From the IMG/VR virus record IMGVR_UViG_3300011013_000014, positions 1 through 55,279 of that record: DNA of 55,279 nt. One strand, 5' to 3'. The position numbers and the translations under genes were made by a program. The notes under the pieces are model-generated. The model was not told the DNA's origin and did not search any database. It was given only the letters and a program-made list of their open reading frames with translations. Origin of the DNA: a virus. Lineage: Duplodnaviria; Caudoviricetes. Positions 5,743 through 50,541 of the stretch are shown here, piece by piece; positions within the stretch are counted from its first letter, which is position 1; the number at the start of each line of letters is the position of its first letter.

Positions 5743-5756
5743 AATATACGTGATTA

Positions 5757-30714: not shown

Positions 30715-31467
30715 ATGAAATTAGCTGAGATTCTAAATGTATTACAAGGAGTTGCTGACCAAAATGGCTTGAGCAAGCCATATGTTGTGGGTGGAATTCC
30801 ACGCAATATTATATTAGATATTTTGGATAATTTAAACGATGTGGATATAACTACCGGCTCAGCAGATATTGATGAGCTGGCTGATTTGTTTGCTGAAGCG
30901 CTTGGTGTTGAAGCCAAGGTTTTAAAGGATGGCCATAAGAAGGTCATATTCGAGGGAATATCTATTGACTTTTCTAGTAATTTTATGTATCCGAACATTG
31001 ATGAAATGCTTTCTGATATGGGAGTTACTGAAATAAATGACTTAGCAAGAGAGACTTATAGTAGGGATTTTACAGTTAATACCCTACTAACTCCTTTGGA
31101 TTTTAGCTCTATTATAGACTTAACAGGCAAGGGGGTATCTGACGTTAATGAGAGGCTACTGCGCTGCCCCGTTGATTGCAACTTAGCATTTAAACATTCT
31201 CCAATACGTATTATAAGGGCGTTTTATTATAGTGCCAAGTACGACCTGGCCCTATCAGGAGACGTTCAGAAAGCCGTGGTAAATAATCTTGATTTACTAG
31301 CCGGGGTGAGCAAGCAGTATATGGGAGATAAAGTTAATAAAATAGTTGAGATGAAGCCTAGCGTGCTAAGCACCATGATCGAGCTAGGAGTGCTGCACAA
31401 GGTACCCATGACTAAAGAACTAAGTAAGGCTTTGATCAAAAACAGGCAAATAGGCAAGGTACTATGA
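30715..31467 (+). CDS. class II CCA-adding/poly(A) polymerase-like nucleotidyltransferase (short, divergent)
   Basis: YVVGGIPRN, DVDITT, SRDFTVN, IIDLTGKG..D...LLR and PIRIIRA motifs. Confidence 0.85.
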   Translation: MKLAEILNVLQGVADQNGLSKPYVVGGIPRNIILDILDNLNDVDITTGSADIDELADLFAEALGVEAKVLKDGHKKVIFEGISIDFSSNFMYPNIDEMLSDMGVTEINDLARETYSRDFTVNTLLTPLDFSSIIDLTGKGVSDVNERLLRCPVDCNLAFKHSPIRIIRAFYYSAKYDLALSGDVQKAVVNNLDLLAGVSKQYMGDKVNKIVEMKPSVLSTMIELGVLHKVPMTKELSKALIKNRQIGKVL

Positions 31468-34095: not shown

Positions 34096-34578
34096 GTGGA
34101 AAGTGCAATATATCATATATTGGATGAAAAGGATAGAGAGCATATAGGTTCGGCAGTTAATTTTACTAAAAAAAAGGGCGCTCACTTAACTCTCTTGCGG
34201 AATAATAGACATTATAATCCAAAATTGCAAAATGCCTTCAACAAATACGGTGAAGGTTTTTTTGTATTCGAACCTATAGTTTATTGTGAAAAAGAAGATC
34301 TATTAGGGACTGAACAAGTACTAATCGACAATCTTGAGCTTCATTACAATATAGCAAAATGTACCACAGCACCAATGATGGGGCGAAAACATACAAAGGA
34401 AGCTATTGCTAAGAGTACTAAGCGCGGTAAAGATCACTCCTGGCTTGGTCGGGCGCATACAGATGAGACTAAAGCGAAAGCAGCTCGTGAGTCTGGAGTA
34501 AGCGCTTCTTGCATTACTTGTGTTTGTAGAGGTAAAGTGATATCCTCCGGTGGATTTGGATTGAGGTACATAACATGA
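34096..34578 (+). pseudogene. degenerate GIY-YIG homing endonuclease with NUMOD3 repeats
   Basis: AIY...HIGSA in place of GIY..YIG, expected catalytic Arg missing, H.N..LQNAFNKYG, YNI, two G..HT.E..AK repeats fused directly to a truncated HTH. Confidence 0.65.
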
Positions 34579-36416
34579 GTAATGTTTCTTTGAAAGCAAA
34601 GCCGGATGCGCATCTTGATCTTTTTAAAGATTTAAAAAAGGAGCTTGCGGTTCTTGATCCCGTGGCGTTTGCCGAAAACCATTTAATGATAGACGGGAAG
34701 CCGTTTAATATGACTGGTACGGGCTGGAAGTTTATGACAGATGTTTATCGCGAGATAGCAGCGCAGGCAAGCAGCAAAGATGCCAAGCCAATTGTAATCC
34801 TCAAATCACGCCAGATAGGCGCCACATTGCTCGCTGCTGTGCTTTCCTTGTACTTTACAGCATCTGGGCTTTATGGGTCTGTGCACGGAAGGCCGCCTAT
34901 TCGTGTGCTACATGTTTTCCCAACCCTAGGGCTTATGGGCAAATATTCTAAAGATAAATTGAGCACGCTAATATCTAGCTCACAAGAAAACTTTATTGAA
35001 AAGAGAGCGGCCCATAATGATCCTGACTTAAAAAGAACAACTCCGGAGGATACGCTTACTGAAAAAACTTTTGCTGGCGGTAATAAGTTAAGAATTGATT
35101 CTCTTGGTCGCGATGCTGATCGCTTGCGTGGCCTATCCGAGGATGTACTGTTTTTTGATGAAATTCAAGATATGGGGCAAATAGCAGTTGAGACGGCCTT
35201 GCGAGTATTGACCATGGCCCAGTATGGACCTCCAGGGCAGGGGGTGCAGCTGTATTTCGGCACTCCTAAAAACACGGGTTCCTATTTTTGGGAGCTATGG
35301 AATATTTCTGATCAGCGGTTCTACCAGTTGCGCTGTACTGACTGCGGCCATTATTTCTTTTTTTACACATTGGGAAATGATGAATGGCGCACAATCTGGA
35401 TTGAGGGTTTTATTATTCAGTGCCCGGAGTGTGGTCACAGACAGGATAAGAAGGACGCTATCGAGGGCGGTCGTTGGGAAGCTACGAAGCCTGGCAAGGA
35501 CAAGTATGTGGGTTACCACATGAATGTGTTGTTAAATCCTATATTTACCAAGGAAGCGGTATTAGACTTGGACCCCAATGTTAATCCTACTCGTAGTCAC
35601 CGTGCTTGGCATAATGAGACTATGGGCGACTTTTTTAGTAGCTCTAACATGACCGTGTCCTTTGAAGATTTGCGAGCTACTTGTTTGAATCCAGAACGAG
35701 GCTTGGCTCGCAGGGTCCGCAATGACAAAGATAAAGTTTATATAATGGGAATTGACTGGGGCGATAAGATTGAGGCCGAAGATGATGATGGCGGGAAGGG
35801 CAAATCTTATACCGTAATAGTTATTCTTTCCTTTGATAAGCGAGGATTTTTTACTGTTGAGAACGCTTGGAAGTTACCTAAAAATGATTTTGAGTATAAA
35901 ATTGAGGTAATAGAGCATTTGTTTCGTATGTTTAAGATCCGTGTTTGTGTAGCGGATTATATGTGGGGAAATGATGTAGTTACTCATATGCAGACGGCAT
36001 TAGATTACGGTACTAAGTTTTTAGGGTGTATTAATAGTGGAAATGTGGGTAGTACTCTGACTTATAAGCCCAAGCAACTACAAGTAACTCTGAATAAAGA
36101 TCTAATGCTGGATGAAGTATTTTCTATGATGAAGAAAGGAAAGGTACAATTCCCCGCTAAAGATGATTCTTACGACCGTATTGAGTGGCTTTTAAGGCAT
36201 TGTGCATCAATGGAAATAACAGTTGCTAAGCGCCACGGTAGTCCGGTAAAGAAATACGTAAAAGGCATAGGGCCTAATGACGGCTTGATGGCCCTTATGT
36301 ATGCACTGGTAGCATATAAGTTTATAGCAACTAATGGTTTTAAGGGCTTGTCTAGCAGCAAGGCTGACGGGCAGCGGCCAATGCCTTCGGTTGCATATAT
36401 ACCAGGAATGAGGTAA
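34575..36416 (+). CDS. terL: terminase large subunit (GpA-like)
   Basis: ILKSRQIGAT Walker A, LFFDEIQD Walker B, GTP coupling motif, CTDC/CPEC zinc finger, GIDWG nuclease motif, late ND. Confidence 0.9.
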   Translation: MSNVSLKAKPDAHLDLFKDLKKELAVLDPVAFAENHLMIDGKPFNMTGTGWKFMTDVYREIAAQASSKDAKPIVILKSRQIGATLLAAVLSLYFTASGLYGSVHGRPPIRVLHVFPTLGLMGKYSKDKLSTLISSSQENFIEKRAAHNDPDLKRTTPEDTLTEKTFAGGNKLRIDSLGRDADRLRGLSEDVLFFDEIQDMGQIAVETALRVLTMAQYGPPGQGVQLYFGTPKNTGSYFWELWNISDQRFYQLRCTDCGHYFFFYTLGNDEWRTIWIEGFIIQCPECGHRQDKKDAIEGGRWEATKPGKDKYVGYHMNVLLNPIFTKEAVLDLDPNVNPTRSHRAWHNETMGDFFSSSNMTVSFEDLRATCLNPERGLARRVRNDKDKVYIMGIDWGDKIEAEDDDGGKGKSYTVIVILSFDKRGFFTVENAWKLPKNDFEYKIEVIEHLFRMFKIRVCVADYMWGNDVVTHMQTALDYGTKFLGCINSGNVGSTLTYKPKQLQVTLNKDLMLDEVFSMMKKGKVQFPAKDDSYDRIEWLLRHCASMEITVAKRHGSPVKKYVKGIGPNDGLMALMYALVAYKFIATNGFKGLSSSKADGQRPMPSVAYIPGMR

Positions 36417-36421
36417 ATATT

Positions 36422-39400
36422 ATGAGTGGCAGCAGGTGGGAAGACGGATCGAGCACGAGCAATACTTTTCAGGAATTCCACGAAAATAGCAAGTGGGACC
36501 AGATGCATTATAATGCGCTCGCAAACCGAAGGGGGCTGGCTGTAGATAATAGCATTCAGCACGGACGGGGGTTGTCTCAGAGCGAGGCGGCCTTAATGAA
36601 TCGCAGGCAGTACGATGCTAGCATTTCCAATGATAATTTTAAAAAATTAAGTAGCACCCGCCAGGCTTATTTTGAAGACATGCAAGCCCGGGCCAATGAG
36701 GAACGGGGAGGCCGCCCTGATTTGGGCATAGGCTCTTCTTATAGTAGGGAATCAGAGCTCAGAAAATATGCTAGAGAGGAAGAAATAAGGAAGTTTTCCA
36801 GTGTGTCTGGAACAGGCGGCGGGTCCTTAGGGGCTAGCACAAATACAGTTCATATGGCACCGGAAGTATACTCCCCTTTATTTCTCACTCAAAATTTACA
36901 GCTGCCTAGGGACAGAATAACAGCGAATGCTTGGAATCGGGCATTTTATGAAACAAATCCTTACGTACGTAACGCTATCAACCTCCATGCTACTTATCCA
37001 ATTAGTAAGTTTAATTTAACTTGTGATGATAAGGAAGTAGAGAAGTTTTTCCTTGATATGTGTGAGCGCATTGATATACAAACAGTGATTCATCAAGTAG
37101 CCTTAGAGTACCACAAGATAGGAGAGGCATTTGTTTATGCTTCTTTTGATGAAACCTCTGGTATGTGGGACCAGGTGTACTTGCACAACCCGGATTATAT
37201 GAGGGTTAAGAGCTCTCCCATTCCAACAAAGGTCCCGTCTATTTCTCTAAGGCCTGATCCAGAGTTGCAACGGATAGTTAATAGCTCTGATCCTGAGCAT
37301 ATAAAGATGCGAGAACAGATAGATCCTAAAATCATTGATCATGTTATTAGGAATGAATATATTCCTCTGGATAGCTTTAATATCAGCCATTTGAAATTGC
37401 TGGCCTCTCCATATGATGTGCGCGGCACTTCCATGATAGTTAGTGCTTGGAAGGATCTAATGCACTATGATAAATTAAGAGAATGCCACGATTCTGAAAC
37501 CGAGGTATTGACTGAAAGTGGCTTCAGGAGCTGGTCTGAGGCCATTGAGCTGAGCAGCGTAAAAGCAGACGGCCCGAAGGCCAATGCAGACGAGCCGAAG
37601 CCCAAAGCTGGCATTAAAATTGCCTGTTTTAATCCAGAAAATGAGAGCATAGAGTTTCACGAACCGACCCGCGCTGTAGCTTACAAGTATGAAGGAGACA
37701 TGGTCCATTTTAATGGACAAAAAGTTGACATAATGGTAACTCCTAACCATCAAATGCTTGTACAGAAAAAGACCAAGAAAAAAGGGTGGTGTGAATGGAG
37801 TGATATTGCAGCTGGTGACATGACTATGGGGTCGCTTTACAGGTTTCGCTCTAAAGCAGGCTGGGAGGGTGAGACTTTAGACACGGTAGAATTTGCAGGA
37901 AAAGCTATAGATACTAATTTATTTATGGAATTTTTAGGCTACGTAGTAAGTGAAGGGTGTGTGTATCACAATGCTAAAAATCATGATAGCAAGGTATCTA
38001 TAAACCAACTACTTACTCAGCCCCATTATGAGCCCATGAGGGATAATTTTAAGAAAATAGCTACTATTTTTGATAGAAAGCTATCTGAGCGTACTTTTAT
38101 GCAATCCAGCGGCTATTCGGAGCTGTCTCCAAAGGAGATTTGGAGCGGTGTGATTTGTCACAAAGAAATGGTTGCAGAGTTTAAAAAACAGATAGGCACA
38201 GAAGGCAGGACTGGCTCGTATGATAAGCGCTTGCCTAGGTGGGTTTTCAAGCTAGCTACTGAGCACTTAGAGGTGCTGCTAAAAGCGCTGGTTGCTGGTG
38301 ACGGATCTATAATTCCCAGTCCTTATGGAGCGGCCGAAAATGGTTTCCGCTACAATACCGTGTCAAAACAGTTAGCAGATGATGTTAGTGAAGTGGCTTA
38401 TAGATGCGGATTCGTGCCTGCTGTGAATGAATACCAGCGTCCTGATCGTGATTTCAAAGAATACCTAGTGTCTTGGTCTGAAACTAACTATGGTGACTTT
38501 CCCTCTGTGTATGGCAATAAGAATCATGGTGGCGCTGACATAGACAGGGTTCCTTATAATGACTACGTGTGGTGCTTCGAGGTGCCTACGGGTTATTTTG
38601 TTACCCGTCGTAATGGAAAAATCACTATTCAGCACAATTGCAAATACAGCCAGGCTGACGGGCTCGTTAATCCGATTACTTTAATCAAAGTAGGCGCTGC
38701 TGGACCAGACGGATTTTACCCTAGGCAAGAGGAGCTAGATGCCTGGAGGCAGGTATTCGAAGCTGGGCAGTATGATAAAGATTTTAAAATAGTAACACAT
38801 GATGCTGTTAGTGTAGAGCGTGTTGGGTCCGCAGGATCTGTAATAGATGTCAGTGCGGACTTTAATCTTATTCTAGATAATATTCTTGTAGGCTTGATGG
38901 TTCCTAAATCGATTATGAATCAGGAAGGATCTTCCTATGCCTCTGCCTCGGTAGCTTTGGATGTTATGCGCCAGCGGTATAATAGTTTTAGGAATATGAT
39001 GTCCAACTGGTTGGAGAAGAAAATATTTGCTCCCATAAGCGAAGTACAGGGATTTTACAAGTTAGATGGTGGCAAAAAGAGATTAATCATTCCCAAAATA
39101 GAGTGGAACCACATGACTCTTTATGATCTTGATAATTATATTTCTCAAATTTCTCAGCTAGTAGACAAGCAGCGGGTCTCTCAGCATACTTTGGACTATA
39201 GTTTGGGCTTAAATCGTAATAACGAGGATGTGCATTTGCGTCAGGAAATGATCGAGAGTGCCATACGCCAGCAAGAGATGGCAGCTTTGGGCAAGTTAAG
39301 TTTGGCAGAATTGCGTGGTCTAGACCCAGAGAAGCCTGTAGTTATTCAAGAGCAAGGAGACGCCCTTCCTGGGCAGGCAATGCCTGGAATTCCTGGTGGT

Positions 39401-39562
39401 GACATGGGCGGTGGCCTTGGTGGTGGCGGCATGGGCGGACTACCTCCGTTACCTCCTCCTCCAATGGGCGGCGGGCTCCCACCTCCACCTCCCGCTGGCG
39501 GTCTTGATCTAGGGCCACTTCCTGGTGGCGGGGCCGACCTGCCTCCCTTACCTCCGGGCTAA
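36422..39562 (+). CDS. portal protein (intein-containing, Pro/Gly-rich C-tail)
   Basis: Directly after terL; portal-like segments FYETNPYVRNAI, EYHKIGEAF, RGTSMI, ILVGLMVP..I...GSSYAS. Confidence 0.8.
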   Translation: MSGSRWEDGSSTSNTFQEFHENSKWDQMHYNALANRRGLAVDNSIQHGRGLSQSEAALMNRRQYDASISNDNFKKLSSTRQAYFEDMQARANEERGGRPDLGIGSSYSRESELRKYAREEEIRKFSSVSGTGGGSLGASTNTVHMAPEVYSPLFLTQNLQLPRDRITANAWNRAFYETNPYVRNAINLHATYPISKFNLTCDDKEVEKFFLDMCERIDIQTVIHQVALEYHKIGEAFVYASFDETSGMWDQVYLHNPDYMRVKSSPIPTKVPSISLRPDPELQRIVNSSDPEHIKMREQIDPKIIDHVIRNEYIPLDSFNISHLKLLASPYDVRGTSMIVSAWKDLMHYDKLRECHDSETEVLTESGFRSWSEAIELSSVKADGPKANADEPKPKAGIKIACFNPENESIEFHEPTRAVAYKYEGDMVHFNGQKVDIMVTPNHQMLVQKKTKKKGWCEWSDIAAGDMTMGSLYRFRSKAGWEGETLDTVEFAGKAIDTNLFMEFLGYVVSEGCVYHNAKNHDSKVSINQLLTQPHYEPMRDNFKKIATIFDRKLSERTFMQSSGYSELSPKEIWSGVICHKEMVAEFKKQIGTEGRTGSYDKRLPRWVFKLATEHLEVLLKALVAGDGSIIPSPYGAAENGFRYNTVSKQLADDVSEVAYRCGFVPAVNEYQRPDRDFKEYLVSWSETNYGDFPSVYGNKNHGGADIDRVPYNDYVWCFEVPTGYFVTRRNGKITIQHNCKYSQADGLVNPITLIKVGAAGPDGFYPRQEELDAWRQVFEAGQYDKDFKIVTHDAVSVERVGSAGSVIDVSADFNLILDNILVGLMVPKSIMNQEGSSYASASVALDVMRQRYNSFRNMMSNWLEKKIFAPISEVQGFYKLDGGKKRLIIPKIEWNHMTLYDLDNYISQISQLVDKQRVSQHTLDYSLGLNRNNEDVHLRQEMIESAIRQQEMAALGKLSLAELRGLDPEKPVVIQEQGDALPGQAMPGIPGGDMGGGLGGGGMGGLPPLPPPPMGGGLPPPPPAGGLDLGPLPGGGADLPPLPPG
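37484..38638 (+). mobile_element. intein with LAGLIDADG endonuclease (385 aa) in the portal
   Basis: Begins CHDSETEVLT, block B VTPNH, LAGLIDADG-like LGYVVSEG and LVAGDGS, block F VWCFEVP, ends QHN with +1 Cys. Confidence 0.92.
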
Positions 39563-39565
39563 TGA

Positions 39566-39862
39566 ATGAAAGCATTAGATGGACTTATAGGGGCCTTGTG
39601 GTATGACCGCATGGCCCCCGTATTCAAAATACTGGATACTTTCGACAATATGGCGCGTGATGCTACTAAGCGAGGCAAAACTGAGTTAGTTCGCGAGTTG
39701 CGCACTCGTTTAACAGAGTGGAATGACTCTATTAATAATTCCCAAGTATATTACGATGATAAGACCAATGTCGTCTTGAAGAGCAATTTGACTCGTTCTA
39801 TGTATGAAATAAGAAAATTGGTTAACATTATAGATGACAGGCTAGGTGGTTTAAAAAAATGA
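39566..39862 (+). CDS. hypothetical protein
   Basis: 98-aa ORF filling the gap between neighbours. Confidence 0.65.
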   Translation: MKALDGLIGALWYDRMAPVFKILDTFDNMARDATKRGKTELVRELRTRLTEWNDSINNSQVYYDDKTNVVLKSNLTRSMYEIRKLVNIIDDRLGGLKK

Positions 39863-41217
39863 TCCCTCTTTCTTTAGCGAAGCGTAAATATGAAAAGCAC
39901 TATTCCGAGAAGCGCAAGACTGACTCGGGAGAGGTCCGTATCTACTCTGAAGAGCATGTGGCTAAGAGGTGGAAGAAAAAAGTAGAAAAACTTAAGCGTC
40001 TTGAAAAAGACGTTATTAAGTTGCGGAAAGAATACAAGGGCCATTTGACTGATGATAATGATGCTAAGACTCGCGCTACTGCTGCCTTAATTGGGCTTAT
40101 AGACAATACCGCTATTAGAATAGGCAATGAGGATTCTGTTGCAGAATCAGGTTCTTTCGGAGCTACTACTTTGCGTAAGAAGCATGCTAAGGTTAAGGGC
40201 AATAAGGTTCGTTTTAAATTCAAGGGTAAAAGTGGGGTCCAGCAAGACATCTTGTTGGATGACGCAGCTGTTGTATCTGAGATCAAAAAGCTACTTAGCG
40301 GCAAGGGCGCCGAAGATGAGATATTTGAATACGAGCCGGGCAAGAGAGTGTCGGGCAAGATTGTCAATAGTTATTTAAAGAAATTTGATATTACGGCTAA
40401 AGACCTCAGGGGGTTTCACGCCAATAAAAAAATGACTGAGGCTTTGAAAAAGACCAAAGATTTTGACAAAGCATTAGAGCAGGTTGCTAAGGAAGTTGGA
40501 CATGAGGCCAAGACCCTGATGAATCAGTATTTGGATCCAGATTTTGTTAAGAAGCACAAGAAGGAGTCTTCATTCCTGCCTCCTCTGAGCAAGAGGGGTG
40601 CGGATTATAGGGCCGAGTTGGAAGACAAGGTAGATTCTATTTTGAGTGGTAGTGGTGGCAGGCAAGATGCCGAGGCTCCTATTGGATTTGGCCCAGCTCA
40701 ACAGCCTGAACAGGGCAAGGGACATGTAGTCCCTCCCTTGACTGAGCGTAGCAATGCCGTTTTGCCGCCCGATCAAATGGAACCTGTTGGCAGGAATAGA
40801 AAAGTCGGGCCGCACCATATTACTGACTTTTACGGACCACGAACCCATCCCACTACTGGCAAGCAGCAATTCCATAGTGGCGTAGATTTGCGAGCTAGGG
40901 AAGGCACGGAGATTTTGTCAATATTCTCAGGAGTAATAACCAGTACGGGCCATGACAATCTAAGCGGCAATTATGTCAGAGTTAAACACCCCGATGGCTT
41001 TAATTCTTCCTATTCTCACTTGAGTGAGGTATTAGTATCCGAGGGGCAGGGAGTCAGTGCCGGCCAGGTAGTTGGGCTAGCAGGTTCTACCGGGCGCGTA
41101 ACTGCGGCCCACCTTCATTTACGTTTGGAGTACAATGGAGAAAAAATAGATCCAGCTCCTTATTTGCGACAATACACAGTAATTGGGCGTACTATCCAGA
41201 ATAGGAGCAATTCATAA
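39859..41217 (+). CDS. topoisomerase IB catalytic domain fused to an M23 metallopeptidase
   Basis: IRIGN, FKGKSG, KDLR, VGH and QYLDP (Topo IB R-K-R-H-Y residues); HSGVDL, YSHL and HLH (M23 zinc motifs). Confidence 0.88.
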   Translation: MIPLSLAKRKYEKHYSEKRKTDSGEVRIYSEEHVAKRWKKKVEKLKRLEKDVIKLRKEYKGHLTDDNDAKTRATAALIGLIDNTAIRIGNEDSVAESGSFGATTLRKKHAKVKGNKVRFKFKGKSGVQQDILLDDAAVVSEIKKLLSGKGAEDEIFEYEPGKRVSGKIVNSYLKKFDITAKDLRGFHANKKMTEALKKTKDFDKALEQVAKEVGHEAKTLMNQYLDPDFVKKHKKESSFLPPLSKRGADYRAELEDKVDSILSGSGGRQDAEAPIGFGPAQQPEQGKGHVVPPLTERSNAVLPPDQMEPVGRNRKVGPHHITDFYGPRTHPTTGKQQFHSGVDLRAREGTEILSIFSGVITSTGHDNLSGNYVRVKHPDGFNSSYSHLSEVLVSEGQGVSAGQVVGLAGSTGRVTAAHLHLRLEYNGEKIDPAPYLRQYTVIGRTIQNRSNS

Positions 41218-41495
41218 TGCCAGAGTGGATGGGCAAGGCCCAGGAGAAAGACTTTGAGGCCGCGTCAAAAATAGTGAAGAAAGATATTGGAAAGAATAAA
41301 TTAAAGGACGATGATTATGCCTTGGTGATGCACATATGGAAAAACATGGAAAAGGCGCATCGTGGCAATAAAAAGAAGAAGAAGAAGTCTGAATTGGTGT
41401 CGGACATGATTTTGCTAGCAAATGAATTAGATTCGCGGGCTTTGTTTAATCATGCTGATAAGATAGATTTAATACTTAGTGGTTTAGCTAGCTAG
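41217..41495 (+). CDS. small basic protein ending in the LA[ND]xLD module
   Basis: C-terminal MILLANELDSRALFNHADKID. Confidence 0.7.
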   Translation: MPEWMGKAQEKDFEAASKIVKKDIGKNKLKDDDYALVMHIWKNMEKAHRGNKKKKKKSELVSDMILLANELDSRALFNHADKIDLILSGLAS

Positions 41496-41528
41496 ACGCT
41501 AGATGCACTAATGTTCTCGGGAGATATT

Positions 41529-43811
41529 ATGGTTGAAAATGTATACGAGTCTTTAAAGAAGGTTTTGCTATCTAGGCTTGAGAAGACTGCAGCGAGCGAT
41601 GATCTAGGACGTTTATTAGGTCAGATGTATCGTCGTTTAACTGGATATGAGAACAAGCTTGCAAATGCGGATGACGTTATAAGCCGCGTTCAGTCAGCTC
41701 CTGAGAATTCACTTGTAAACAAAGATGAGCAGCTGAGTAAGCTCATGCGAGATCGAGAGCGTATTGCTGATAGTATTAATACTTTGCGAGAGCAGTACGA
41801 GATTAAACAATTACAATACACCACTGAGCAAGGCCAGCCTTGGTCAGAACCAGAGCTTAGGCGCCCTCCATTGCAGTACAAGGAAGAAGAAAGGGCGGCA
41901 CCCAGCCCTAGGCAGGATGGCCCCATGCGTAAAGAGCGTCGGCCTGAGATGTGGGGTAGTAAATCTAGGGAAGATCGTAAAGCCAGAGAGCGTGCTCTGA
42001 GTGGTGAAGAGCCTGCTATGTCTGTTAAGGTAAAGGAGGAAGTTCCATTATCTGTAAGCAAAGATGCTCCTTCAGAGAGCAAGGCTCCCAGTGGTAAAGG
42101 CCCTATGTCGTTTAAAGAATGGCGCGAAGGGGTGGGCAAATCCCATCCAGCAGCTATGGATCTTGAGACAGAGACTGATTTCGCTGTAAGGAACGAAAAG
42201 GCCAGTGAGCTTTTCGGTGCTTACAAGCAGTATTTGGACTCTGTTACTGGGCAGCGCAGTGAAAGTTTGAGACCGTCTCATTTAGACATTGTCAAGCCTG
42301 AAGAGCTCGGAGAGATTTCCGCTTCAGATATAATGTCTAACTTATTTAGTCATATTTTAAAAATAACAGGCGCTGCTGAATCTGGCGGAGACAGCGTTTC
42401 TGGACAGATGGTGCAATATTTGTATTCAGTTGTGCAGGGTGCAGAAACAGACGTCCCTGATTTTATCGCTTTTAGTAAGCGGGACTGGATCTCTCACAAA
42501 GGAGAGCGTTTGCATGGGTATGCGGCAAATAAATTAGTAGCTGATGATTTAAACCGTGTTGCCAAAAATCTTGGCAGTTTTCTTGGTGATTTTGGCACGA
42601 GGTTAGAAGAATTGCCAGCTTCTCCGAGTGATGCTGATCGTAAACGATTAGCTAACCAATTAAATACTCAACTTGATAGTGCTGCAGGCTCTATTGTGAG
42701 TAGCCTGGTAAATAATTTGGAAAAAATGAATAAGGCTGATGTTATGCATGGTCGTGGAGAGGGCGCTCGTCTTGCTCCGGGGGAAGAGGGGTTTTTAGAG
42801 CCCAAGCCTGAGGCTAAAGAGCGATACGAGCCATTTATAGGCGGAACTTCAAGAATGCAGGAGCTCATGGGTGTTGATCCTCAGCGACCCTCTGGCACTC
42901 CAGAGGACCTTGGAGTGCTAGACACTCGTCGCCCTACTCCTTCGGACTTGAAGATGCTTTCATTTGAGGAATGGGGCAGGAGTGGCGCTGGTAAGGACTC
43001 TGTAGATGCATGGAGGGCCGGAGGAGGCGGTGCGGATGGCTTGAGTGCGTTATCTGACGAATATCAGGCTTATGTTCAAAAGCAAAAAATGCTTGGTCGC
43101 CAAATGAAGGAACAGCAGTCTGGTACAGGCGGGCAAACTCGCCGCCGTGTAGCACCTTTGAGACGACGCAGGCAGCGCAGCAAGAAGCGCCCAGGTACTG
43201 AGGTCCAGCAGGAGCATGGCTCCATACCGGCCCCTATTGATCTCCCCGATTTGGAAACAAGCAAGGCTAATGACTTGTTAGAGAAGATAGCTGTTAGGCG
43301 CAGGCATCGCAGGCACCTGATGAAACACAAGATGGAGGGCCGCCCAGTTGTGCGTGACATTGCACCGGAAACCCCTCTGGACGATCCAGAAGCATTTAAG
43401 GGAGAGCGCGCTACGACACCCTCGGACGAAGTCATGGAAGGCATGCACGAGGGCGCCAGGCTTATGAGGGAGCAGTTGGGAGAGCGGTCCGACCTAGTAA
43501 CTGATGATTTGTATAAGACCAGAGAGGAATTGATGGACCTATATGAAATTGTTAAAAACCAACACAGGCATGCTAAGCGCCAGCATAAGGCGGGCGACAT
43601 AAGTGATGTCAAATTCGGAAAATATGAAGCCCTTTTAAATAATCTTAAATCAGATATTAAAAACGTAGAAATGAAAATAAAGGATGCCGAAAGATTCATG
43701 CAAGAAGAGGGAACCTATAGCGATCCTCTGGGCGGGCAATCTGATAGAATCAGCCCTGTAGACCCTCGCTTCACTCCCTCTCGTTCTAGGAAAATGCATA
43801 GCCAAACATGA
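41529..43811 (+). CDS. large charged hypothetical protein, probably virion-internal
   Basis: SD GGGAG; N-terminal LEKTA; Arg-rich patches; internal SFxEW repeat. Confidence 0.75.
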   Translation: MVENVYESLKKVLLSRLEKTAASDDLGRLLGQMYRRLTGYENKLANADDVISRVQSAPENSLVNKDEQLSKLMRDRERIADSINTLREQYEIKQLQYTTEQGQPWSEPELRRPPLQYKEEERAAPSPRQDGPMRKERRPEMWGSKSREDRKARERALSGEEPAMSVKVKEEVPLSVSKDAPSESKAPSGKGPMSFKEWREGVGKSHPAAMDLETETDFAVRNEKASELFGAYKQYLDSVTGQRSESLRPSHLDIVKPEELGEISASDIMSNLFSHILKITGAAESGGDSVSGQMVQYLYSVVQGAETDVPDFIAFSKRDWISHKGERLHGYAANKLVADDLNRVAKNLGSFLGDFGTRLEELPASPSDADRKRLANQLNTQLDSAAGSIVSSLVNNLEKMNKADVMHGRGEGARLAPGEEGFLEPKPEAKERYEPFIGGTSRMQELMGVDPQRPSGTPEDLGVLDTRRPTPSDLKMLSFEEWGRSGAGKDSVDAWRAGGGGADGLSALSDEYQAYVQKQKMLGRQMKEQQSGTGGQTRRRVAPLRRRRQRSKKRPGTEVQQEHGSIPAPIDLPDLETSKANDLLEKIAVRRRHRRHLMKHKMEGRPVVRDIAPETPLDDPEAFKGERATTPSDEVMEGMHEGARLMREQLGERSDLVTDDLYKTREELMDLYEIVKNQHRHAKRQHKAGDISDVKFGKYEALLNNLKSDIKNVEMKIKDAERFMQEEGTYSDPLGGQSDRISPVDPRFTPSRSRKMHSQT

Positions 43812-46545: not shown

Positions 46546-49500
46546 ATGTTTTTAAAACAAGCCACTGCTGTGGGATTTGAGCCAATTAATGGTGCCGCCA
46601 GAGACGCGGCCTTGTCTGCTTATGCTGATGAAATTAATGAAATGCTTGTCAAGCGTGCCAAGAAGGCCAAGAGGCTGATGCCAAAGCCGGATGATTTCAT
46701 TTTGGGCCATTGCATTATGATGCACGCAGGAGAGACGACCCTAATCAATCAAGCCACTGGCGAGCCAATTCTGAACAAAAAAGGGAAGCCTGTTTCTGGT
46801 TGTTTTGAGAAAGTCGTAGATGGCAATGGAAAAGACAGTGTGAGGTGGGTTTCTGCTGACGGTATAATGCCTTATAAAAATATGAACGGAGATATTTTTC
46901 CTGAAGAAGATTTAATTGCTAAGCACAAGGAGTGGATAGGAAAGCCTCTTTGCAAGGATCATATTAGCAGCTCTGTTGATGGCATACGCGGCATAGTGGT
47001 AGATACTTATTATGATACCAAGTTTAAACGAGTGCATGCTTTGTTTGCTCTTGATCGTAAAAACTACCCTGAGCTTGCTGCAAAAGTAGAGCGTGGTTAT
47101 GCAACTTCTGTTTCCATGGGAACGGCAGTGGGCAAGGCTATATGTACAGAGTGTTCTAATATAGCTACTACCGAGGCAGAGTATTGCGAGCATATACGTA
47201 AAAAGAGTAATTATGGTGAAATAAATAAAGATTTATCTCCCATAGAGCTCAGCTTGGTGGTCACAGGCGCAGATCCTGCTGCTAAGGTAAAAACTGTACT
47301 TGCTAGTTTGCGCGATTATGTAGCGCAAGCAGAAAATGAATTTCATGAGATTGCGAATGGCAATTCTGCTGATAAGCAATCTCTAGATAGTATCCTAGCA
47401 TCTATCAGAAAAGCGGAAATCAAGCTTGATGATGTTAGGATTTGCAAGATGGCAGATTTAGATCTTGATCATCTTGCAGAAAATATAGTGAATTTGGAGA
47501 GTCGTAAAAAGGGAGACCCTAATATTGAATTCTATGCACAACAGCTGCCTCAGGGAGTTGAAGAGTTGGCAGGAGTTCAGGATCAGGGATTATTGAGACG
47601 ACTTCTTCATCAAGCTAATAAACATGATCTTGAGTTTTATCAAAATGTGTCTGACGCTTTATCTCAGCTTGAAATGGCTGAGAGTGGCGAAAATGAACTA
47701 CTAATAAATAAAACTCATGATAACGGTGACGTTGGAAATCCTGGGCAAGAACATACTGTTGGCTTTACTGACAGTTCAGGATATACTCTTAACGAAGGGT
47801 TTTCCGACGATTTATCTACTGGCGATCTTTTGCCAATGGATAATAAGCCGCCACCGGGTGAATACATGCAAGGGTTTAGCTCCTTGTATACTGAACTGGA
47901 CAAAGTTGGAACGTCTGATGAAATCACTAGCCTGGAAAACAAGTTAGCTGGCTTAAAAGACCAAATTCTAAGTCTTGAAAAAACTCTTGAATACAATAAG
48001 GAGAAACCAATGAATTTTGATGAGATGAAGGAGCGTTCAATCAGTCGCCGTCTTGCATATCACCAGGGTACGGAGCCCAACCAGAAGTATGAACTTATGG
48101 GAGATCAGGATAAGATCCGTAACACGATGGATAAGCAAATGGTGGGAGATGAACTCGACTATGGTAGTGATGCTGAGGCATTAGCTGCTGGTGACAAAAG
48201 TAAGAAAGAACTAATGCAACGTGCTGCGCTTGAAGAGCGTAAGTTGCGTCGTGCTGCTTTGAGGGCCCAGATTGAAAAGGCCGCTAATAATGGAGAGATT
48301 GTTTATGATAAATCAGGGCAGCCTGCTGGCGTCAAAGGCACTGATGGCAAGTTCCGCGCAGTAACCCAGTCCGCTGATGATGGCGAAGAGGGTAAGAAAG
48401 AGTACAAGAAAAAGGCCTATTACCAGGGGTCTGAGGAGCCGAAGCCAGGTCAACCTCAGTATGAAAACTCTGGCAACCAAGACAAGGTTCGCAGCACTAT
48501 GGACAAACAAATGGTGGGCGAAGGTATGGAGTCTGGATCGGACGGCTTGCACCCTGGTTACAAGGGCAATTCTGATGAGTCAGTTAAAAAGTACTGGCAG
48601 CGAATGGCTAACCTGAAGGGCAAGCTCGTTAAGGGCGCTGCTTCTGACGCGCGTTGGGACATTTTTGCTGATGGCGAAAAAGTACTTACCGTTAATGCTA
48701 GCGATGTTTATGGCGCTGTTTGGAATGATAAAGTTTCTAAAGAGGCCGGTGCGGCTACTCACGGAGAGTACTTTCAAAACAAGGATTATGGCAAGCGCCT
48801 TCTGAATCTTGTACGCGAAGCAGAGGGCCCTATGGGCGCTGCTGAAGCACTTGAGCTCCCCGATGAGGCTGGCATGGCCGGTAAGGCTGGCATGGCCGGC
48901 GATGATGGGATGAGTGGAGCGAAGGATAAGGTTCTTGCTGCCATTTCGGCAGCACAGGATGCATTGGCCGATGCCGAGGCTGCTCTTGGTGCTTCTGGAA
49001 TCGTAGACGTTGAGGTCCCTGCTAGCGAAGACAACTTGGGCGGCCTGCCTATTGCTGCTTCTGCGAAACACTTAATTGAGGTTCGTGCCGAGGTTGAAGC
49101 CTCTATCGAAGAACTTTCATTTTTGGGCCAAAACATGAGTAATGATGAGTCAGTAGCCAGTGCTGCGACTGAGGCTGTTAATGATGCTAACGCAGTTATT
49201 GCTTATTACAAAGGCCTCGTTACTGAGGCTAAAAGCTCTACTGAGAAAACCGCATCTGATATGTTGCAAGACCTGCTCAAAGTTCGCGCTGCCAAGCGTG
49301 CTGCTGTAGCTGCCAAGGCTATTAGGACCACTGCTAATGCAGACCTGAGTAATGCAGGGGTTGATGAGCTGATTTCTGCCGCTTCTGATGAATGGGCAGA
49401 TCTTCCTGATGACTGGGCTGATTTACCAAAACCAGAGGTTGATACGACGCGTCCTGGAGATGCTTACGATATGCTTGTTGATGATATGGCCGCTAAAGAC

Positions 49501-50541
49501 GGTAAAGACAATGATGATGATAAGGATGACGAGGGCAAAGACGAGGACGATAAGGGTGATGAGGACGATAAGGGTGATGAGGACGATAAGGGTGACAAAG
49601 ATGATAAGAAAGACGATAAGGACGAAGACGAAAAAGATGCCGATGGCATGATGTATGCCAAAGACGGCAAATACAAGGAAGACGATAAAGAGGGCGATGA
49701 GGACGAGGACGAAAAAGATGCCAAGGGTGGTAAATGCCCTGAAGATGATGTCTCTGTTGAAGAAGAAAAAATGATGGAGGTCAAAGTTGAGGAGCATAAT
49801 GAGGATGCCGGCGCGCACAAAGAGTCTAGCAAAACATGGCGTAATCGCCTAGTTGCCATGGCGAAAGGTGAGTACCAGTCTACTTATGAGGAAGCTCGTA
49901 CTGATGCCGGTGCAAAGGTTGCTGTAGACGCTAATGTCTCTGATGACCTTGACCTGGTTGAAAACCTCCACACTCAGCATGCCAAGCATGTGGATGTCGC
50001 AACTTCCGAGCCTCGCAATGTTCGACTGGCTAAGGCGCTTAATAACGCTATAGTCAAGGGAGCTGTGGATGCTTCTAAGTTGGACGACCTTGTTGCTCTT
50101 GGCATGGTTGATGCTGACGCGGTTAAATACTGGAATGATCTATATGGCGAGGGTGACCAAGCCAGTGGCGCATTTGGTAATGAGCTTTCCAAAGAATTTG
50201 GGAATCATAAGAAAACCGCCTCTAACAAGGACAGCCTAAATGAGCATGAAGCTCGTTTGCGCCGCTCTTTCATGCTCGGATTGGAAGCCCAAGAAAAAGG
50301 CCTTATCAGTAAGAGCGCTTCTGCTCTTAATGAGTATGTAGATAATGTCTCTACGCTCCCTGACGAGGTATTCCAAAGTGTAAGGAACATTGTTTCTCAG
50401 CACAAGAAAGCTTCGGCTTCTGTCACACCTCAGGTAGGTATCAATCACGACACCACTGGAGAGCAGGAAACTGTTGTTAGGACTGCTTCAGTCCGCAACG
50501 GATCCCCTTCTGTCCGTGATCTCGCTGGTATCTTTAGCTGA
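46546..50541 (+). CDS. prohead protease fused to a long scaffold-like region
   Basis: NMNGDIF, WIGKPLCKDH (His), VSMG (Ser), CTEC..CEH and IELSLV..GADP.A resemble HK97/assemblin-type proteases; followed by an acidic, Ala-rich repetitive region. Confidence 0.78.
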   Translation: MFLKQATAVGFEPINGAARDAALSAYADEINEMLVKRAKKAKRLMPKPDDFILGHCIMMHAGETTLINQATGEPILNKKGKPVSGCFEKVVDGNGKDSVRWVSADGIMPYKNMNGDIFPEEDLIAKHKEWIGKPLCKDHISSSVDGIRGIVVDTYYDTKFKRVHALFALDRKNYPELAAKVERGYATSVSMGTAVGKAICTECSNIATTEAEYCEHIRKKSNYGEINKDLSPIELSLVVTGADPAAKVKTVLASLRDYVAQAENEFHEIANGNSADKQSLDSILASIRKAEIKLDDVRICKMADLDLDHLAENIVNLESRKKGDPNIEFYAQQLPQGVEELAGVQDQGLLRRLLHQANKHDLEFYQNVSDALSQLEMAESGENELLINKTHDNGDVGNPGQEHTVGFTDSSGYTLNEGFSDDLSTGDLLPMDNKPPPGEYMQGFSSLYTELDKVGTSDEITSLENKLAGLKDQILSLEKTLEYNKEKPMNFDEMKERSISRRLAYHQGTEPNQKYELMGDQDKIRNTMDKQMVGDELDYGSDAEALAAGDKSKKELMQRAALEERKLRRAALRAQIEKAANNGEIVYDKSGQPAGVKGTDGKFRAVTQSADDGEEGKKEYKKKAYYQGSEEPKPGQPQYENSGNQDKVRSTMDKQMVGEGMESGSDGLHPGYKGNSDESVKKYWQRMANLKGKLVKGAASDARWDIFADGEKVLTVNASDVYGAVWNDKVSKEAGAATHGEYFQNKDYGKRLLNLVREAEGPMGAAEALELPDEAGMAGKAGMAGDDGMSGAKDKVLAAISAAQDALADAEAALGASGIVDVEVPASEDNLGGLPIAASAKHLIEVRAEVEASIEELSFLGQNMSNDESVASAATEAVNDANAVIAYYKGLVTEAKSSTEKTASDMLQDLLKVRAAKRAAVAAKAIRTTANADLSNAGVDELISAASDEWADLPDDWADLPKPEVDTTRPGDAYDMLVDDMAAKDGKDNDDDKDDEGKDEDDKGDEDDKGDEDDKGDKDDKKDDKDEDEKDADGMMYAKDGKYKEDDKEGDEDEDEKDAKGGKCPEDDVSVEEEKMMEVKVEEHNEDAGAHKESSKTWRNRLVAMAKGEYQSTYEEARTDAGAKVAVDANVSDDLDLVENLHTQHAKHVDVATSEPRNVRLAKALNNAIVKGAVDASKLDDLVALGMVDADAVKYWNDLYGEGDQASGAFGNELSKEFGNHKKTASNKDSLNEHEARLRRSFMLGLEAQEKGLISKSASALNEYVDNVSTLPDEVFQSVRNIVSQHKKASASVTPQVGINHDTTGEQETVVRTASVRNGSPSVRDLAGIFS
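48010..50541 (+). CDS. putative nested in-frame scaffold protein (843 aa)
   Basis: Strong SD TAAGGAG 6 nt before in-frame ATG at 48010 (Met489), where the repetitive region starts. Confidence 0.6.
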   Translation: MNFDEMKERSISRRLAYHQGTEPNQKYELMGDQDKIRNTMDKQMVGDELDYGSDAEALAAGDKSKKELMQRAALEERKLRRAALRAQIEKAANNGEIVYDKSGQPAGVKGTDGKFRAVTQSADDGEEGKKEYKKKAYYQGSEEPKPGQPQYENSGNQDKVRSTMDKQMVGEGMESGSDGLHPGYKGNSDESVKKYWQRMANLKGKLVKGAASDARWDIFADGEKVLTVNASDVYGAVWNDKVSKEAGAATHGEYFQNKDYGKRLLNLVREAEGPMGAAEALELPDEAGMAGKAGMAGDDGMSGAKDKVLAAISAAQDALADAEAALGASGIVDVEVPASEDNLGGLPIAASAKHLIEVRAEVEASIEELSFLGQNMSNDESVASAATEAVNDANAVIAYYKGLVTEAKSSTEKTASDMLQDLLKVRAAKRAAVAAKAIRTTANADLSNAGVDELISAASDEWADLPDDWADLPKPEVDTTRPGDAYDMLVDDMAAKDGKDNDDDKDDEGKDEDDKGDEDDKGDEDDKGDKDDKKDDKDEDEKDADGMMYAKDGKYKEDDKEGDEDEDEKDAKGGKCPEDDVSVEEEKMMEVKVEEHNEDAGAHKESSKTWRNRLVAMAKGEYQSTYEEARTDAGAKVAVDANVSDDLDLVENLHTQHAKHVDVATSEPRNVRLAKALNNAIVKGAVDASKLDDLVALGMVDADAVKYWNDLYGEGDQASGAFGNELSKEFGNHKKTASNKDSLNEHEARLRRSFMLGLEAQEKGLISKSASALNEYVDNVSTLPDEVFQSVRNIVSQHKKASASVTPQVGINHDTTGEQETVVRTASVRNGSPSVRDLAGIFS
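49543..49596 (+). repeat. 3 x 18-bp coding tandem repeat (EDDKGD)
   Basis: GAGGACGATAAGGGTGAY three times, inside a D/E/K low-complexity tract. Confidence 0.9.

Follow-up and report, generated by a model that had tools for sequence, protein, structure and literature searches.

Why should a bacterial virus encode a DNA topoisomerase and a peptidoglycan peptidase in one polypeptide, in a gene lying close behind that of its portal protein? The question is raised by an open reading frame (ORF) in the IMG/VR virus record IMGVR_UViG_3300011013_000014, the whole 55,279-nt stretch of which was analysed and is termed the window here; all positions refer to it, and all features described are encoded on the + strand. 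The ORF joins a type IB topoisomerase (Topo IB) module to an M23 zinc peptidase domain, an arrangement of which no description was found in the literature. The record is a fragment with an estimated completeness of 15%, so the source phage probably has a huge genome of several hundred kb.

Integrity of the fusion gene

The fusion gene (39859..41217; protein P0001) begins with ATG and encodes 452 amino acids with zero internal stops, while the strand opposite it is riddled with them, and GC3 is even across the two halves that meet at the junction. A 5,157-nt contig that was assembled independently, possibly from the source sample, covers positions 39400–41600 with 0 differences and 0 gaps. The preliminary description of this DNA had reported a single uninterrupted Topo IB–M23 ORF and proposed a search for others of the same architecture. 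The ORF is indeed intact, and the search returned 25 further proteins with 44–63% identity to P0001 from independent JGI, ENA, NCBI and Logan assemblies, which together with P0001 make up a family of 26 members.

An artefact of assembly or gene calling, for which the preliminary description had allowed, or a fusion with one dead half, is a negligible prospect given these 25 independent homologues of identical architecture, the matching contig, the even GC3 over the junction and the invariance of both active sites described below. No evidence in its favour was found, although in L020 an in-frame TAG codon lies between the Topo and M23 halves. When TAG is translated as Q, a single 452-aa ORF is restored and two upstream ORFs merge as well, and to judge from this pattern the codon is probably read through; the idea that Topo and M23 are naturally separate proteins in L020 was accordingly rejected. 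A separate M23 product arising from an internal start in P0001 was likewise rejected, as Met307 has no Shine–Dalgarno-like sequence upstream.

The topoisomerase module

The constant Topo IB module comprises residues 1–262 (39859..40644), as delimited by Pfam, the structural model, fold matches and an alignment with giant relatives, which align to P0001 from residue 15 to about residues 230–329. According to the secondary structure of the model, it is made up of a basic N-terminal β-hairpin segment, the catalytic domain and a trailing helix (residues 243–262). The Topoisom_I profile (PF01028) matches residues 38–209 (E 1.3e-28; 100.4 bits versus a cut-off of 23.7), and the catalytic pentad of R87, K124, R184, H215 and Y224 is invariant in all 26 family members. 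The codon of Y224, which lies in the motif NQYLDP, occupies positions 40528..40530 by arithmetic from the ORF start, in agreement with the location given for the tyrosine in the preliminary description.

Comparisons with VIA-align matched the fold of the module to Topo IB of D. radiodurans (3m4a; Z 22.7, rmsd 2.6 Å over 198 residues, 25% identity), variola virus (2h7f; Z 22.2, 232 residues aligned) and human (1k4t; Z 21.5), with model residues 4–241 superposing on residues 20–291 of the poxvirus chain. The N-terminal domain of bacterial Topo IB (PF21338) is absent from the phage protein in Pfam searches at E up to 1, the profile match to Topo IB begins at residue 71 of the variola and residue 79 of the D. 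radiodurans enzyme, and all that lies ahead of the core in the AlphaFold model is a β-hairpin at residues 15–29. Of the N-terminal domain that ordinarily clamps the DNA, the module retains a mere remnant. With most of this clamp missing, full DNA relaxation activity, which in type IB enzymes is independent of ATP and passes through a 3′-phosphotyrosyl intermediate, is no more than assumed.

The peptidase domain

The M23 (LytM/lysostaphin-type) zinc peptidase domain is formed by residues 315–452 (40801..41214) and was identified by Pfam, by its site residues and by its fold. Peptidase_M23 (PF01551) matches residues 337–432 over the full length of the profile (1–96; E 8.8e-28; 96.8 bits versus a cut-off of 28.7), the site residues H339xxxD343, H387 and H418xH420 are all present, which provide the zinc ligands (HxxxD and the second His of HxH) and the two catalytic histidines, and VIA-align superposed the domain on ShyA (Z 19.4, rmsd 1.8 Å over 120 residues) and LytM (Z 18.4, rmsd 1.3 Å over 117 residues). 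H387, H418 and H420 are invariant in the 26 family members. H339 and D343 are aligned in 22 of them, and the remaining four carry an HxGxD motif at the C-terminus, in a putative arrangement of the domain with its halves swapped. The model of one such member (P0007) has a pLDDT of 59, with a C-terminal β-domain (residues 301–426) at pLDDT 63–88 that matched generic barrel-sandwich folds alone (Z about 5–6), as expected since the aligner is order-dependent. Both active sites had been described as complete in the window protein, and the Topo pentad and the zinc-binding and catalytic residues of M23 are kept throughout the family (26/26).

The M23 domain is predicted, from its residues and profile, to cleave peptidoglycan, and it would gain access to the wall either by ejection or by way of a holin. 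M23 domains are present in structures or models of phage virions, namely in an 'Internal protein' (9k2v_E), a 'Gp16' (9m7n_A) and a 'hub' (8kea), and are also found in phage tape measure and baseplate hub proteins.

The tether between the two domains

The AlphaFold model of P0001 (pLDDT 80.7) contains two confident domains separated by disorder at residues 265–312, where pLDDT falls below 50. The disordered tether, set from pLDDT at residues 263–314 (40645..40800), includes the sequences GSGG and VVPPLTE. Such an element could be the processing site of a virion polyprotein, as the preliminary description had proposed; the prohead protease would cut it in the linker, and the wall-opening M23 enzyme and the Topo IB, now separate, would both be ejected on infection. 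We regard this as rather unlikely. In T4, the prohead protease trims head-packaged enzymes, Alt among them; disorder leaves the tether exposed in the model, and the position of the gene in a head module, with a PHROG match to head-maturation proteases nearby, would also suit processing. Several virion proteins of phage PaBG are proteolytically processed, according to the accessible text of PMC7412058.

The linkers of the family provide little that a common protease could recognize: they range from 21 to 70 residues (median 32.5), their sequence is variable, and no cleavage motif common to all 26 was found in the alignment. Prohead proteases of the T4 type cut at L/I-x-E and those of the phiKZ type at S/A/G-x-E; the LTE at about residues 294–296 of P0001 was considered as such a site and rejected, since the alignment shows no conservation there. 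Directly before the tether, at residues 235–247, lies the linker motif KESSFLPPLSKRG, which the preliminary description had called shared. The motif is present, but it occurs a single time: no second copy was found in the six frames of the whole window, the next best matches differ from it at 6 of 13 positions, as expected by chance, and no other window gene therefore shares it. More favourable to cleavage is a short PP element (hydrophobic-hydrophobic-PP-hydrophobic / PPL[ST]xK), which occurs 7 times in 5 close members (twice each in P0001 and P0025, once each in P0003, P0013 and P0021) and totals 9 matches across the 40,395 aa that make up the family proteins versus 0 in 17,640 aa of other window proteins. 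Most members of the family and almost all of the giants, however, lack it. In addition, the candidate protease, a 1331-aa protein described below, is assigned as such by PHROG match only, and nothing observed requires cleavage.

The tethers are glycine-rich in P0001 (GSGG) and in P0019 (GGGG). That the M23 domain might cleave its own tether at such sequences is pure speculation.

Genomic neighbourhood

The fusion gene is part of a head-morphogenesis block, with terminase and portal genes upstream and a gene for a protease-like protein downstream. The terminase large subunit (34575..36416; phrog_675, E 4.4e-63; GpA_ATPase) has ≤27% identity to that of any annotated phage, and the fusion protein has no close relative in culture. 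The terminase gene is followed by the portal gene (36422..39562), the product of which has 1046 aa versus about 634–667 aa in relatives and is matched by portal PHROGs at residues 97–339 and 769–956; a probable intein lies inside, as indicated by LAGLIDADG_3 at residues 619–676 and a weak Intein_splicing match at 397–739. Between the portal and fusion genes there is one small helical ORF of 98 aa (39566..39862), the stop codon of which overlaps the fusion start (ATGA), with an AGGTGG site present, and the fusion is therefore two genes past the portal, as first described. An ORF of 65–112 aa with divergent sequence is found at the equivalent place in each of the 10 IMG/VR loci whose record extends upstream.

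On the downstream side, a 92-aa ORF (41217..41495), which is translationally coupled to the fusion gene by a TAATG overlap and conserved in two related loci (L002, L003), precedes a 766-aa ORF (41511..43811) of no recognisable family or fold, for which searches gave no Pfam or PHROG match and no usable Atlas match (pLDDT of the Atlas model, 0.50). The head-maturation-protease-like protein is encoded 5 kb downstream of the fusion gene (46546..50541). It has 1331 aa and 31% identity to gp19 of Bacillus phage G, and its prohead-protease-like N-terminal region (residues 112–254) matches phrog_18299 (E 1.3e-11) and phrog_2774 and gave no meaningful sequence match in the PDB. The window also encodes a stand-alone CCA-adding-type nucleotidyltransferase (30715..31467; phrog_2244) with 23–26% identity to three giant relatives of the fusion protein (L005, L006, L007), within their PolyA_pol head domains. 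A holin-like gene beside the fusion was not evident from PHROGs and Pfam, the neighbours being small soluble ORFs.

A location beside the terminase and portal genes would also be compatible with a late cytoplasmic protein that is never packaged, in which the Topo part relieves torsional stress on concatemeric DNA during replication or during packaging by the terminase–portal motor and the M23 part is an endolysin, or part of one, that passes through a holin at lysis. In two loci (L044, L045) the terminase gene lies immediately upstream of a stand-alone Topo gene, the PHROG matches of the M23 domain include families annotated 'endolysin', and P0001 has no detectable signal peptide or transmembrane segment (maximal 19-residue hydropathy of 0.95), which fits a holin-dependent endolysin equally well. 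Moreover, in the accessible part of Iyer et al. 2021 (PMC7824862) the Topo I of jumbo phages, which has a tyrosine-recombinase-type catalytic domain, is classed under DNA topology. This explanation is nevertheless unlikely in our view. It gives no reason why a lysin should be fused to a topoisomerase, or why RNA-repair, kinase, SET and NUDIX modules should replace the lysin in the same gene slot; the neighbourhood supplies no evident holin, and the M23 partner is confined to one clade of the family.

The wider family of Topo modules

The preliminary description had missed a larger pattern, in which the M23 domain proves to be one of many alternative partners of the Topo IB module. This module stays constant in a phage-specific multi-domain family, and the remainder varies. 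Among the best 150 representatives from an exhaustive search, 111 have the Topo module but no M23 domain (907 aa in the median, 3,381 aa at most) and 6 have both. Alternative partners include PolyA_pol/CCA plus HD, 2H, LigD_N phosphoesterase, RNA_ligase plus cREC, HAD_SAK_1, SET, NUDIX and Kinase-PolyVal (the last in P0037, with E 3.7e-63), and single relatives bear up to 6 Pfam families each; ART-PolyVal matches in L026 and L074 (28.7 and 30.8 bits) are slightly under the cut-off of 31.2. The phage Topo modules group in a clade separate from 7 bacterial sequences. Matches to the module were obtained from 6 of 50,697 phage records, and a scan of 185,579 species genomes gave 16 candidate stretches, 2 of which encode a relative; both are contigs of metagenome-assembled genomes (MAGs), and one is clearly phage-like.

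The order of terminase, portal, small ORF and Topo gene is found in 10/10 IMG/VR loci with upstream DNA and also in the 485-kb phage LR745208 and a MAG contig (L096). For 80 metagenome loci the picture is more varied: a portal gene ends ≤1,500 nt upstream in 23 (10 of these being distant relatives with gaps of 36–106 nt) and lies 3.1–6.3 kb upstream in 7 more, and no portal was found with a lineage-built profile in 48. When 25 of these 48 were checked with PHROGs, at least 8 proved to have a short Topo gene that stands alone in the company of DHH, Ku, PNK, ligase and RNR genes, and hence the Topo module is not bound to the head block everywhere.

Such company raises the question of whether the module is mainly an enzyme for processing and re-joining nucleic-acid ends, as part of a phage repair kit, rather than a DNA swivel. 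We consider this very unlikely, and give the same low credence to its more specific form, a highly doubtful one in which an injected, ATP-independent kit would use the Topo tyrosine to capture 2′,3′-cyclic or 3′-phosphate ends of tRNA, RNA and DNA and join them to 5′-OH ends. In that scheme the fused 2H, LigD-phosphoesterase, CCA/HD, cREC and HAD modules might help to undo anticodon-nuclease and DNA-nicking defences at entry, and the kit of the clade to which the window belongs would have been reduced to the Topo module and the wall-opening M23 domain. Vaccinia Topo IB can form a 2′,3′-cyclic phosphate at a ribonucleotide and join 5′-OH RNA ends. Repair-type Pfam domains (PolyA_pol/CCA, HD, 2H, tRNA_lig_CPD, LigD_N, RNA_ligase, cREC and HAD_SAK_1 were counted) occur in 16/80 metagenome Topo ORFs, RNA/DNA-end-repair domains occur also in 5/7 IMG/VR Topo proteins without M23, and the stand-alone forms adjoin DHH, Ku, PNK and ligase genes. 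These are associations only, however, and the domains may be fused simply because they are delivered together as cargo. The module retains the whole pentad and the fold of a DNA topoisomerase, P0001 itself has no repair domain, and a literature listing showed no paper that links Topo IB with RNA repair.

Proposed role and significance

A constant Topo part joined to a varying remainder follows the plan of polyvalent proteins, for which packing in the phage head and injection with the DNA have been proposed. By this analogy we propose, with moderate confidence, that the fusion is a polyvalent-type protein that is packaged in the head and injected, with the M23 domain opening the wall and Topo IB acting on the incoming DNA. 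The prohead would take up the protein in the vicinity of the portal, and the protein would leave with the genome. Where the phage enters, peptide cross-links of the wall would be severed by the M23 part, and the Topo part, which would be independent of ATP and Mg, would stay on the incoming DNA and relieve the torsional stress of ejection and early transcription, like the encapsidated poxvirus enzyme. The prohead protease might cut the tether, but packaging and injection would not require this, since the two domains, on a flexible tether, could act while still joined. Related phages swap the second half for RNA-repair enzymes, which suggests a toolkit that enters the host with the DNA.

If virions contain the fusion protein, it would be the first counterpart in a bacterial virus of the encapsidated topoisomerase of poxviruses, and a DNA-topology enzyme would join the list of phage-injected activities. 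The matter bears on torsional stress during the ejection and first transcription of genomes of several hundred kb. With a constant Topo IB encoded next to the portal gene and exchangeable cargo of wall-lytic, RNA-repair, kinase, SET and NUDIX type, the family offers a compact and testable system in which the delivery of counter-defence enzymes by huge phages can be studied. The family is in addition a source of M23 lysins and of small Topo IB enzymes that have no N-terminal clamp domain.

Comparison with known systems

Topo I occurs as a stand-alone protein in cultured jumbo phages. In PaBG (gp84), phiRSL1, Lu11, Motura and PhiXhv-12 its gene is located among structural genes and has a gene for a SprT-like peptidase in its vicinity. 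In PaBG, PaBG_00084 adjoins gp83, gp81 and gp80, all three of which belong to the virion proteome; gp84 itself is not among the virion proteins identified by mass spectrometry in the accessible text of PMC7412058, where identification extended to no more than 14 abundant gel bands. Resemblance of the cultured-phage enzymes to the window protein is limited to about 29% identity in the catalytic part, and to the Xanthomonas/Erwinia group; the PaBG enzyme is related by fold alone, and none is fused to M23. The best structural match of the phage module is the Topo IB of D. radiodurans (3m4a, 2f4q), which is matched from chain residue 88 onwards; bacterial homologues have the PF21338 domain, unlike the phage protein.

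For the M23 domain, the parallel lies with capsid-internal and ejection proteins. In these, of which T7 gp16 and the capsid-internal protein of Anabaena phage A-4L (9k2v_E) are examples, an M23 or other peptidoglycan hydrolase domain forms part of a protein that the virion stores until infection sets it free. These proteins have about 900–1,060 aa and no topoisomerase, and the likeness is limited to the M23 domain.

In overall organization the fusion resembles the polyvalent proteins of phages and conjugative elements, which combine unrelated enzymatic domains in a single polypeptide, are encoded near late virion genes and have been proposed to be injected (Iyer et al. 2017, PMC5512222, as far as its accessible text extends). 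P0001 combines disparate activities, those of a DNA transesterase and a wall peptidase; it is encoded among late or virion genes, those of the terminase, portal and protease-like protein, and its homologues contain domains of polyvalent type, namely Kinase-PolyVal, 2H and the weakly matched ART-PolyVal. It differs from polyvalent proteins in that the constant module is Topo IB. In P0001, searches with Pfam at E up to 1 and with PHROGs detected neither a MuF anchor or other known head-targeting domain nor a zincin processing peptidase; in the giant relatives, long regions carry no annotation. In the accessible main text of PMC5512222 'topoisomerase' appears once, in the title of a reference, and 'M23' nowhere.

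For the Topo IB module, the precedent is that of the poxviruses (vaccinia H6R and variola; 2h7f, 3igc), the enzyme of which has the same fold and catalytic pentad. The differences are considerable: identity is 18–19%, and the phage module has a hairpin remnant, is fused to M23, belongs to a gene of a bacterial virus and is only putatively packaged. The precedent of packaging on which the preliminary description had drawn stands, in that the H6R topoisomerase is counted among the 'known virion enzymes' of vaccinia virus in the accessible part of PMC1540416. Vaccinia Topo I is packaged and acts mainly in early transcription, and a virion role of this kind is what we propose for the phage fusion.

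Two enzymes in one reading frame

The fusion gene (39859-41217, + strand) is an uninterrupted ORF of 452 amino acids with an ATG start, and the strand opposite to it is closed. Residues 38-209 of its product, P0001, match Topoisom_I (Pfam, E 1.3e-28) and residues 337-432 match Peptidase_M23 (Pfam, E 8.8e-28), both far above the curated cut-offs. The Topo IB catalytic residues are R87, K124, R184, H215 and Y224, the last lying within NQYLDP (codon 40528-40530), and the M23 residues are complete (H339xxxD343, H387 and H418xH420). ORF, Pfam matches and residues all agree with the preliminary description of one open frame carrying both sets of active-site residues. An AlphaFold model of P0001 built from 26 input sequences (pLDDT 80.7) contains two confident domains, with disorder at residues 265-312. 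When compared with this model using VIA-align, Topo IB of D. radiodurans gave Z 22.7 (rmsd 2.6 Å over 198 residues), variola Topo IB Z 22.2, ShyA Z 19.4 and LytM Z 18.4 (rmsd 1.3 Å over 117 residues). No transmembrane or signal segment was found in P0001, and a candidate internal start at Met307, which has no ribosome-binding site, was rejected.

The gene had been placed two genes after the portal, and this is borne out by the order of portal (36422-39562), 98-aa ORF (39566-39862) and fusion gene. The last overlaps both of its small neighbours (ATGA and TAATG), overlaps through which it is translationally coupled to each. A further statement, that the linker motif KESSFLPPLSKRG is shared, did not hold: since it occurs as a single copy in the six frames of the window, the next best stretch having 6 of 13 positions mismatched, it is not common to another window gene. 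P0001 joins two enzymes, both intact, by a flexible tether and is encoded at a head-block position.

The fusion as a genuine architecture

The Topo-M23 fusion is a genuine architecture rather than an artefact. With a word-indexed search of 5.8 billion proteins, 25 other proteins with both Pfam domains were recovered (44-63% identity; from assemblies of JGI, ENA, NCBI and Logan, on contigs as long as 368 kb), which refutes the assembly artefact that had been considered at the outset. A separately assembled 5,157-nt contig covers 39400-41600 with 0 differences, although its run may be the source sample, and GC3 is even over the Topo/M23 junction.

The Topo pentad and H387, H418 and H420 are kept in all 26 Topo+M23 proteins, and H339 and D343 are aligned in 22. 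The exceptions are four homologues (P0007, P0013, P0021 and P0025) in which the C-terminal half of the M23 domain (YxHL...HLH) precedes the N-terminal half (HxGxD...), the latter ending at the protein C-terminus. This arrangement looks like a circular permutation that retains all ligands. In one related contig, L020, the Topo-M23 gene (1923-3281) and the gene before it (712-1926) are each interrupted by a single in-frame TAG. If TAG is translated as an amino acid, the former becomes a 452-aa Topo-M23 ORF and two upstream ORFs are joined into one of 404 aa. A neighbouring 606-aa gene has no TAG, and the pattern suggests stop-codon recoding or suppression in late genes of this phage.

A protein with a PHROG head-maturation-protease match is encoded 5 kb downstream of the fusion gene. 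No conserved cleavage site was found across the 26 linkers (21-70 residues). A short hydrophobic-PP-hydrophobic element is present in five close members, with two copies each in P0001 and P0025; in P0025 and P0021 it sits where domains meet. It is missing from most other members. Protease cleavage of the tether is possible, but we consider it rather unlikely.

A constant topoisomerase module with variable cargo

Among 11 IMG/VR loci, four encode Topo+M23 (410-442 aa), and in the others proteins of 1,290-2,634 aa contain the Topo module (the equivalent of P0001 residues 15 to about 230-329) together with PolyA_pol/CCA head, HD, 2H (2_5_RNA_ligase2) and LigD 3'-phosphoesterase domains and weak matches to M15 peptidase and LigD Prim-Pol. 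From metagenome contigs the best 80 of 180 relatives were retained; their Topo ORFs span 248-2,962 aa, 17 are cut by a contig end, and some loci duplicate one another or earlier proteins. M23 is present in four of these 80 ORFs (Pfam) and at least one RNA/DNA-end-repair domain (PolyA_pol, HD, 2H, tRNA_lig_CPD, LigD_N, RNA_ligase with cREC_REC, HAD_SAK_1) in 16. Further partners are SET, ASCH, PAP2 and DUF5661, with ART-PolyVal just under the cut-off, and database proteins join Topo to Kinase-PolyVal (E 3.7e-63) or NUDIX. The best 150 matches of an exhaustive profile search of 1.84 billion representatives comprised six Topo+M23 proteins, 33 with M23 only and 111 with Topo but not M23 (median 907 aa, 68 above 700 aa, maximum 3,381 aa). 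A constant Topo module is combined with variable cargo.

In trees of 111 unique Topo modules, with seven bacterial Topo IB sequences as outgroup, M23 is confined to one clade (29 tips; FastTree 0.64, SH-aLRT 93.2). A clade of portal-adjacent giant proteins (14 tips; 0.99, 95.6) and a third clade (61 tips; 0.54, 100) were also recovered, with no supported branching order among the three. The module matched 6 of 50,697 phage records (tblastn). In a 185,579-species genome collection only two of 16 candidate stretches encode a relative, both on MAG contigs, one of which has a portal, a 48-nt gap and a ~2,087-aa ORF with the Topo module. On these counts, the module is specific to phages.

The stand-alone CCA-type nucleotidyltransferase of the window (30715-31467) shares 23-26% identity with a homologous domain in the Topo giants of three loci (L005-L007), so an activity that sister phages build into the portal-adjacent giant as cargo is a free gene in the window lineage. 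A 2,806-aa Topo giant (L076, 3935-12352) carries an intein directly past its PolyA_pol head domain (Intein_splicing E 3.7e-10, LAGLIDADG_3 E 2.3e-12).

Gene neighbourhood

The order terminase, portal, 65-112-aa ORF and Topo-bearing gene was found in all 10 of the 11 IMG/VR loci that have upstream DNA. A portal profile made from the window lineage detected a same-strand portal ending no more than 1,500 nt before the Topo gene in 23 of the 80 metagenome loci (17 of the 51 whose upstream flank is 2,500 nt or longer, and six with shorter flanks); ten of the 23 are distant relatives with portal-Topo gaps of only 36-106 nt. The portal is 3.1-6.3 kb upstream in seven more loci and ~5 kb downstream in two, and this lineage-built profile found none in 48.

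PHROGs were run on the neighbours in 25 of these 48 loci and in the 485-kb phage LR745208, which encodes in order a terminase, an inserted transposase, a portal, a 134-aa ORF, a 508-aa Topo ORF and a prohead protease. Two of the loci (L044, L045) have a terminase directly upstream of a stand-alone Topo gene and two (L035, L059) a protease downstream. Eight (L034, L040, L042, L057, L058, L061, L066, L072) have short stand-alone Topo genes in a differing context, with DHH phosphoesterase, Ku, polynucleotide kinase, NAD ligase, RNR or RNA-ligase-like neighbours; the remainder of the 25 gave no informative matches. In L042, L057, L058, L061, L066 and L072 the Topo IB gene is beside a DHH phosphoesterase, in some cases with a Ku-like gene or polynucleotide kinase. 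This end-repair neighbourhood is recurrent in huge-phage contigs. By these results, the head-module position is strong in the window clade and recurrent elsewhere, but not universal.

The phage and its head block

The record is a linear viral fragment of 15% estimated completeness, and on this basis the genome is probably several hundred kb. Other products of the window are SbcCD, a Pol III alpha-like polymerase, UvsX, primase and sigma-like proteins. The phage has no close cultured relative; the terminase (34575-36416) is at most 27% identical to those of Bacillus siphophages. Two sigma-factor-like genes in the replication region (6576-7397 and 23620-23976; Sigma70_r2 and PHROG sigma matches) suggest that middle or late transcription is under the phage's own control.

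The portal is 1046 aa, compared with about 634-667 aa in relatives, and probably holds an intein, since its insertion (~residues 340-768) matches LAGLIDADG_3 and, weakly, Intein_splicing. Further inteins may explain other long versions in relatives, namely a 970-aa terminase in L003, a 1413-aa portal in L006 and the portals of L021 and L023. Homing-endonuclease-type genes also interrupt the head block. A NUMOD3-bearing gene (34096-34578) lies just upstream of the terminase, and an endonuclease VII/HNH-like pair (45641-46270 and 46347-46538) lies directly before the protease-bearing gene. The 1331-aa product of the latter (46546-50541) is prohead-protease-like only at residues 112-254, a region 31% identical to Bacillus phage G gp19. 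The remaining ~1,000 residues are without annotation and complete relatives exceed 880 aa; the product may combine a protease with scaffold or further head components in one chain.

Comparison with known systems

In Xanthomonas phage PhiXhv-12 a 668-aa topoisomerase follows a SprT-like metallopeptidase gene (4181-5020 of its locus), and a head-tail connector gene lies 2.7 kb downstream of the topoisomerase. In PaBG the Topo I gene PaBG_00084 is flanked by the virion-proteome genes gp83, gp81 and gp80 on the one hand and a SprT-like gene (4975-6321 of its locus) on the other. Since trapped Topo I is among the DNA-protein crosslinks that SprT/Spartan-type proteases remove, the two may form a functional pair in these phages. 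A passage of Iyer et al. 2021 (PMC7824862) on DNA topology names PaBG, phiRSL1, Lu11, Motura and NCTB as carriers of a Topo I specific to phages, and PaBG Topo I is missing from the 14 abundant virion bands identified in Table 1 of PMC7412058.

The phage Topo module is equivalent to the clamp's catalytic half, matching variola Topo IB from about residue 20-71 on and the human enzyme at 404-750, and lacks the N-terminal domain of bacterial Topo IB (Pfam). The isolated vaccinia catalytic domain is still active, with weaker DNA binding. The earlier statement that poxviruses package Topo IB for early transcription is in keeping with passages that describe the vaccinia enzyme as a 'known virion enzyme' (PMC1540416) and state that it 'primarily functions in early transcription' (PMC12188299).

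Polyvalent proteins are encoded near late virion genes and, in a passage of PMC5512222, are proposed to be injected. By this published logic, P0001 would be packed in the prohead and exit with the DNA. The use of M23 in virion proteins fits such packaging: M23 domains are found in the PDB entries 'Internal protein' (9k2v_E), 'Gp16' (9m7n_A) and 'hub' (8kea), and in tape measure, baseplate hub and internal proteins in BFVD. The literature searched yielded no description of a phage topoisomerase IB with M23. Among the matches listed, those for type IB topoisomerase in bacteriophages were telomere resolvases and recombinases, and those from the jumbo/huge-phage and RNA-repair literature contained nothing on Topo IB fusions; the main text of Iyer 2017 (PMC5512222) mentions neither Topo IB nor M23. 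We rate the Topo-M23 protein as belonging with the polyvalent or ejection proteins, which are already known, and its Topo-M23 variant as new.
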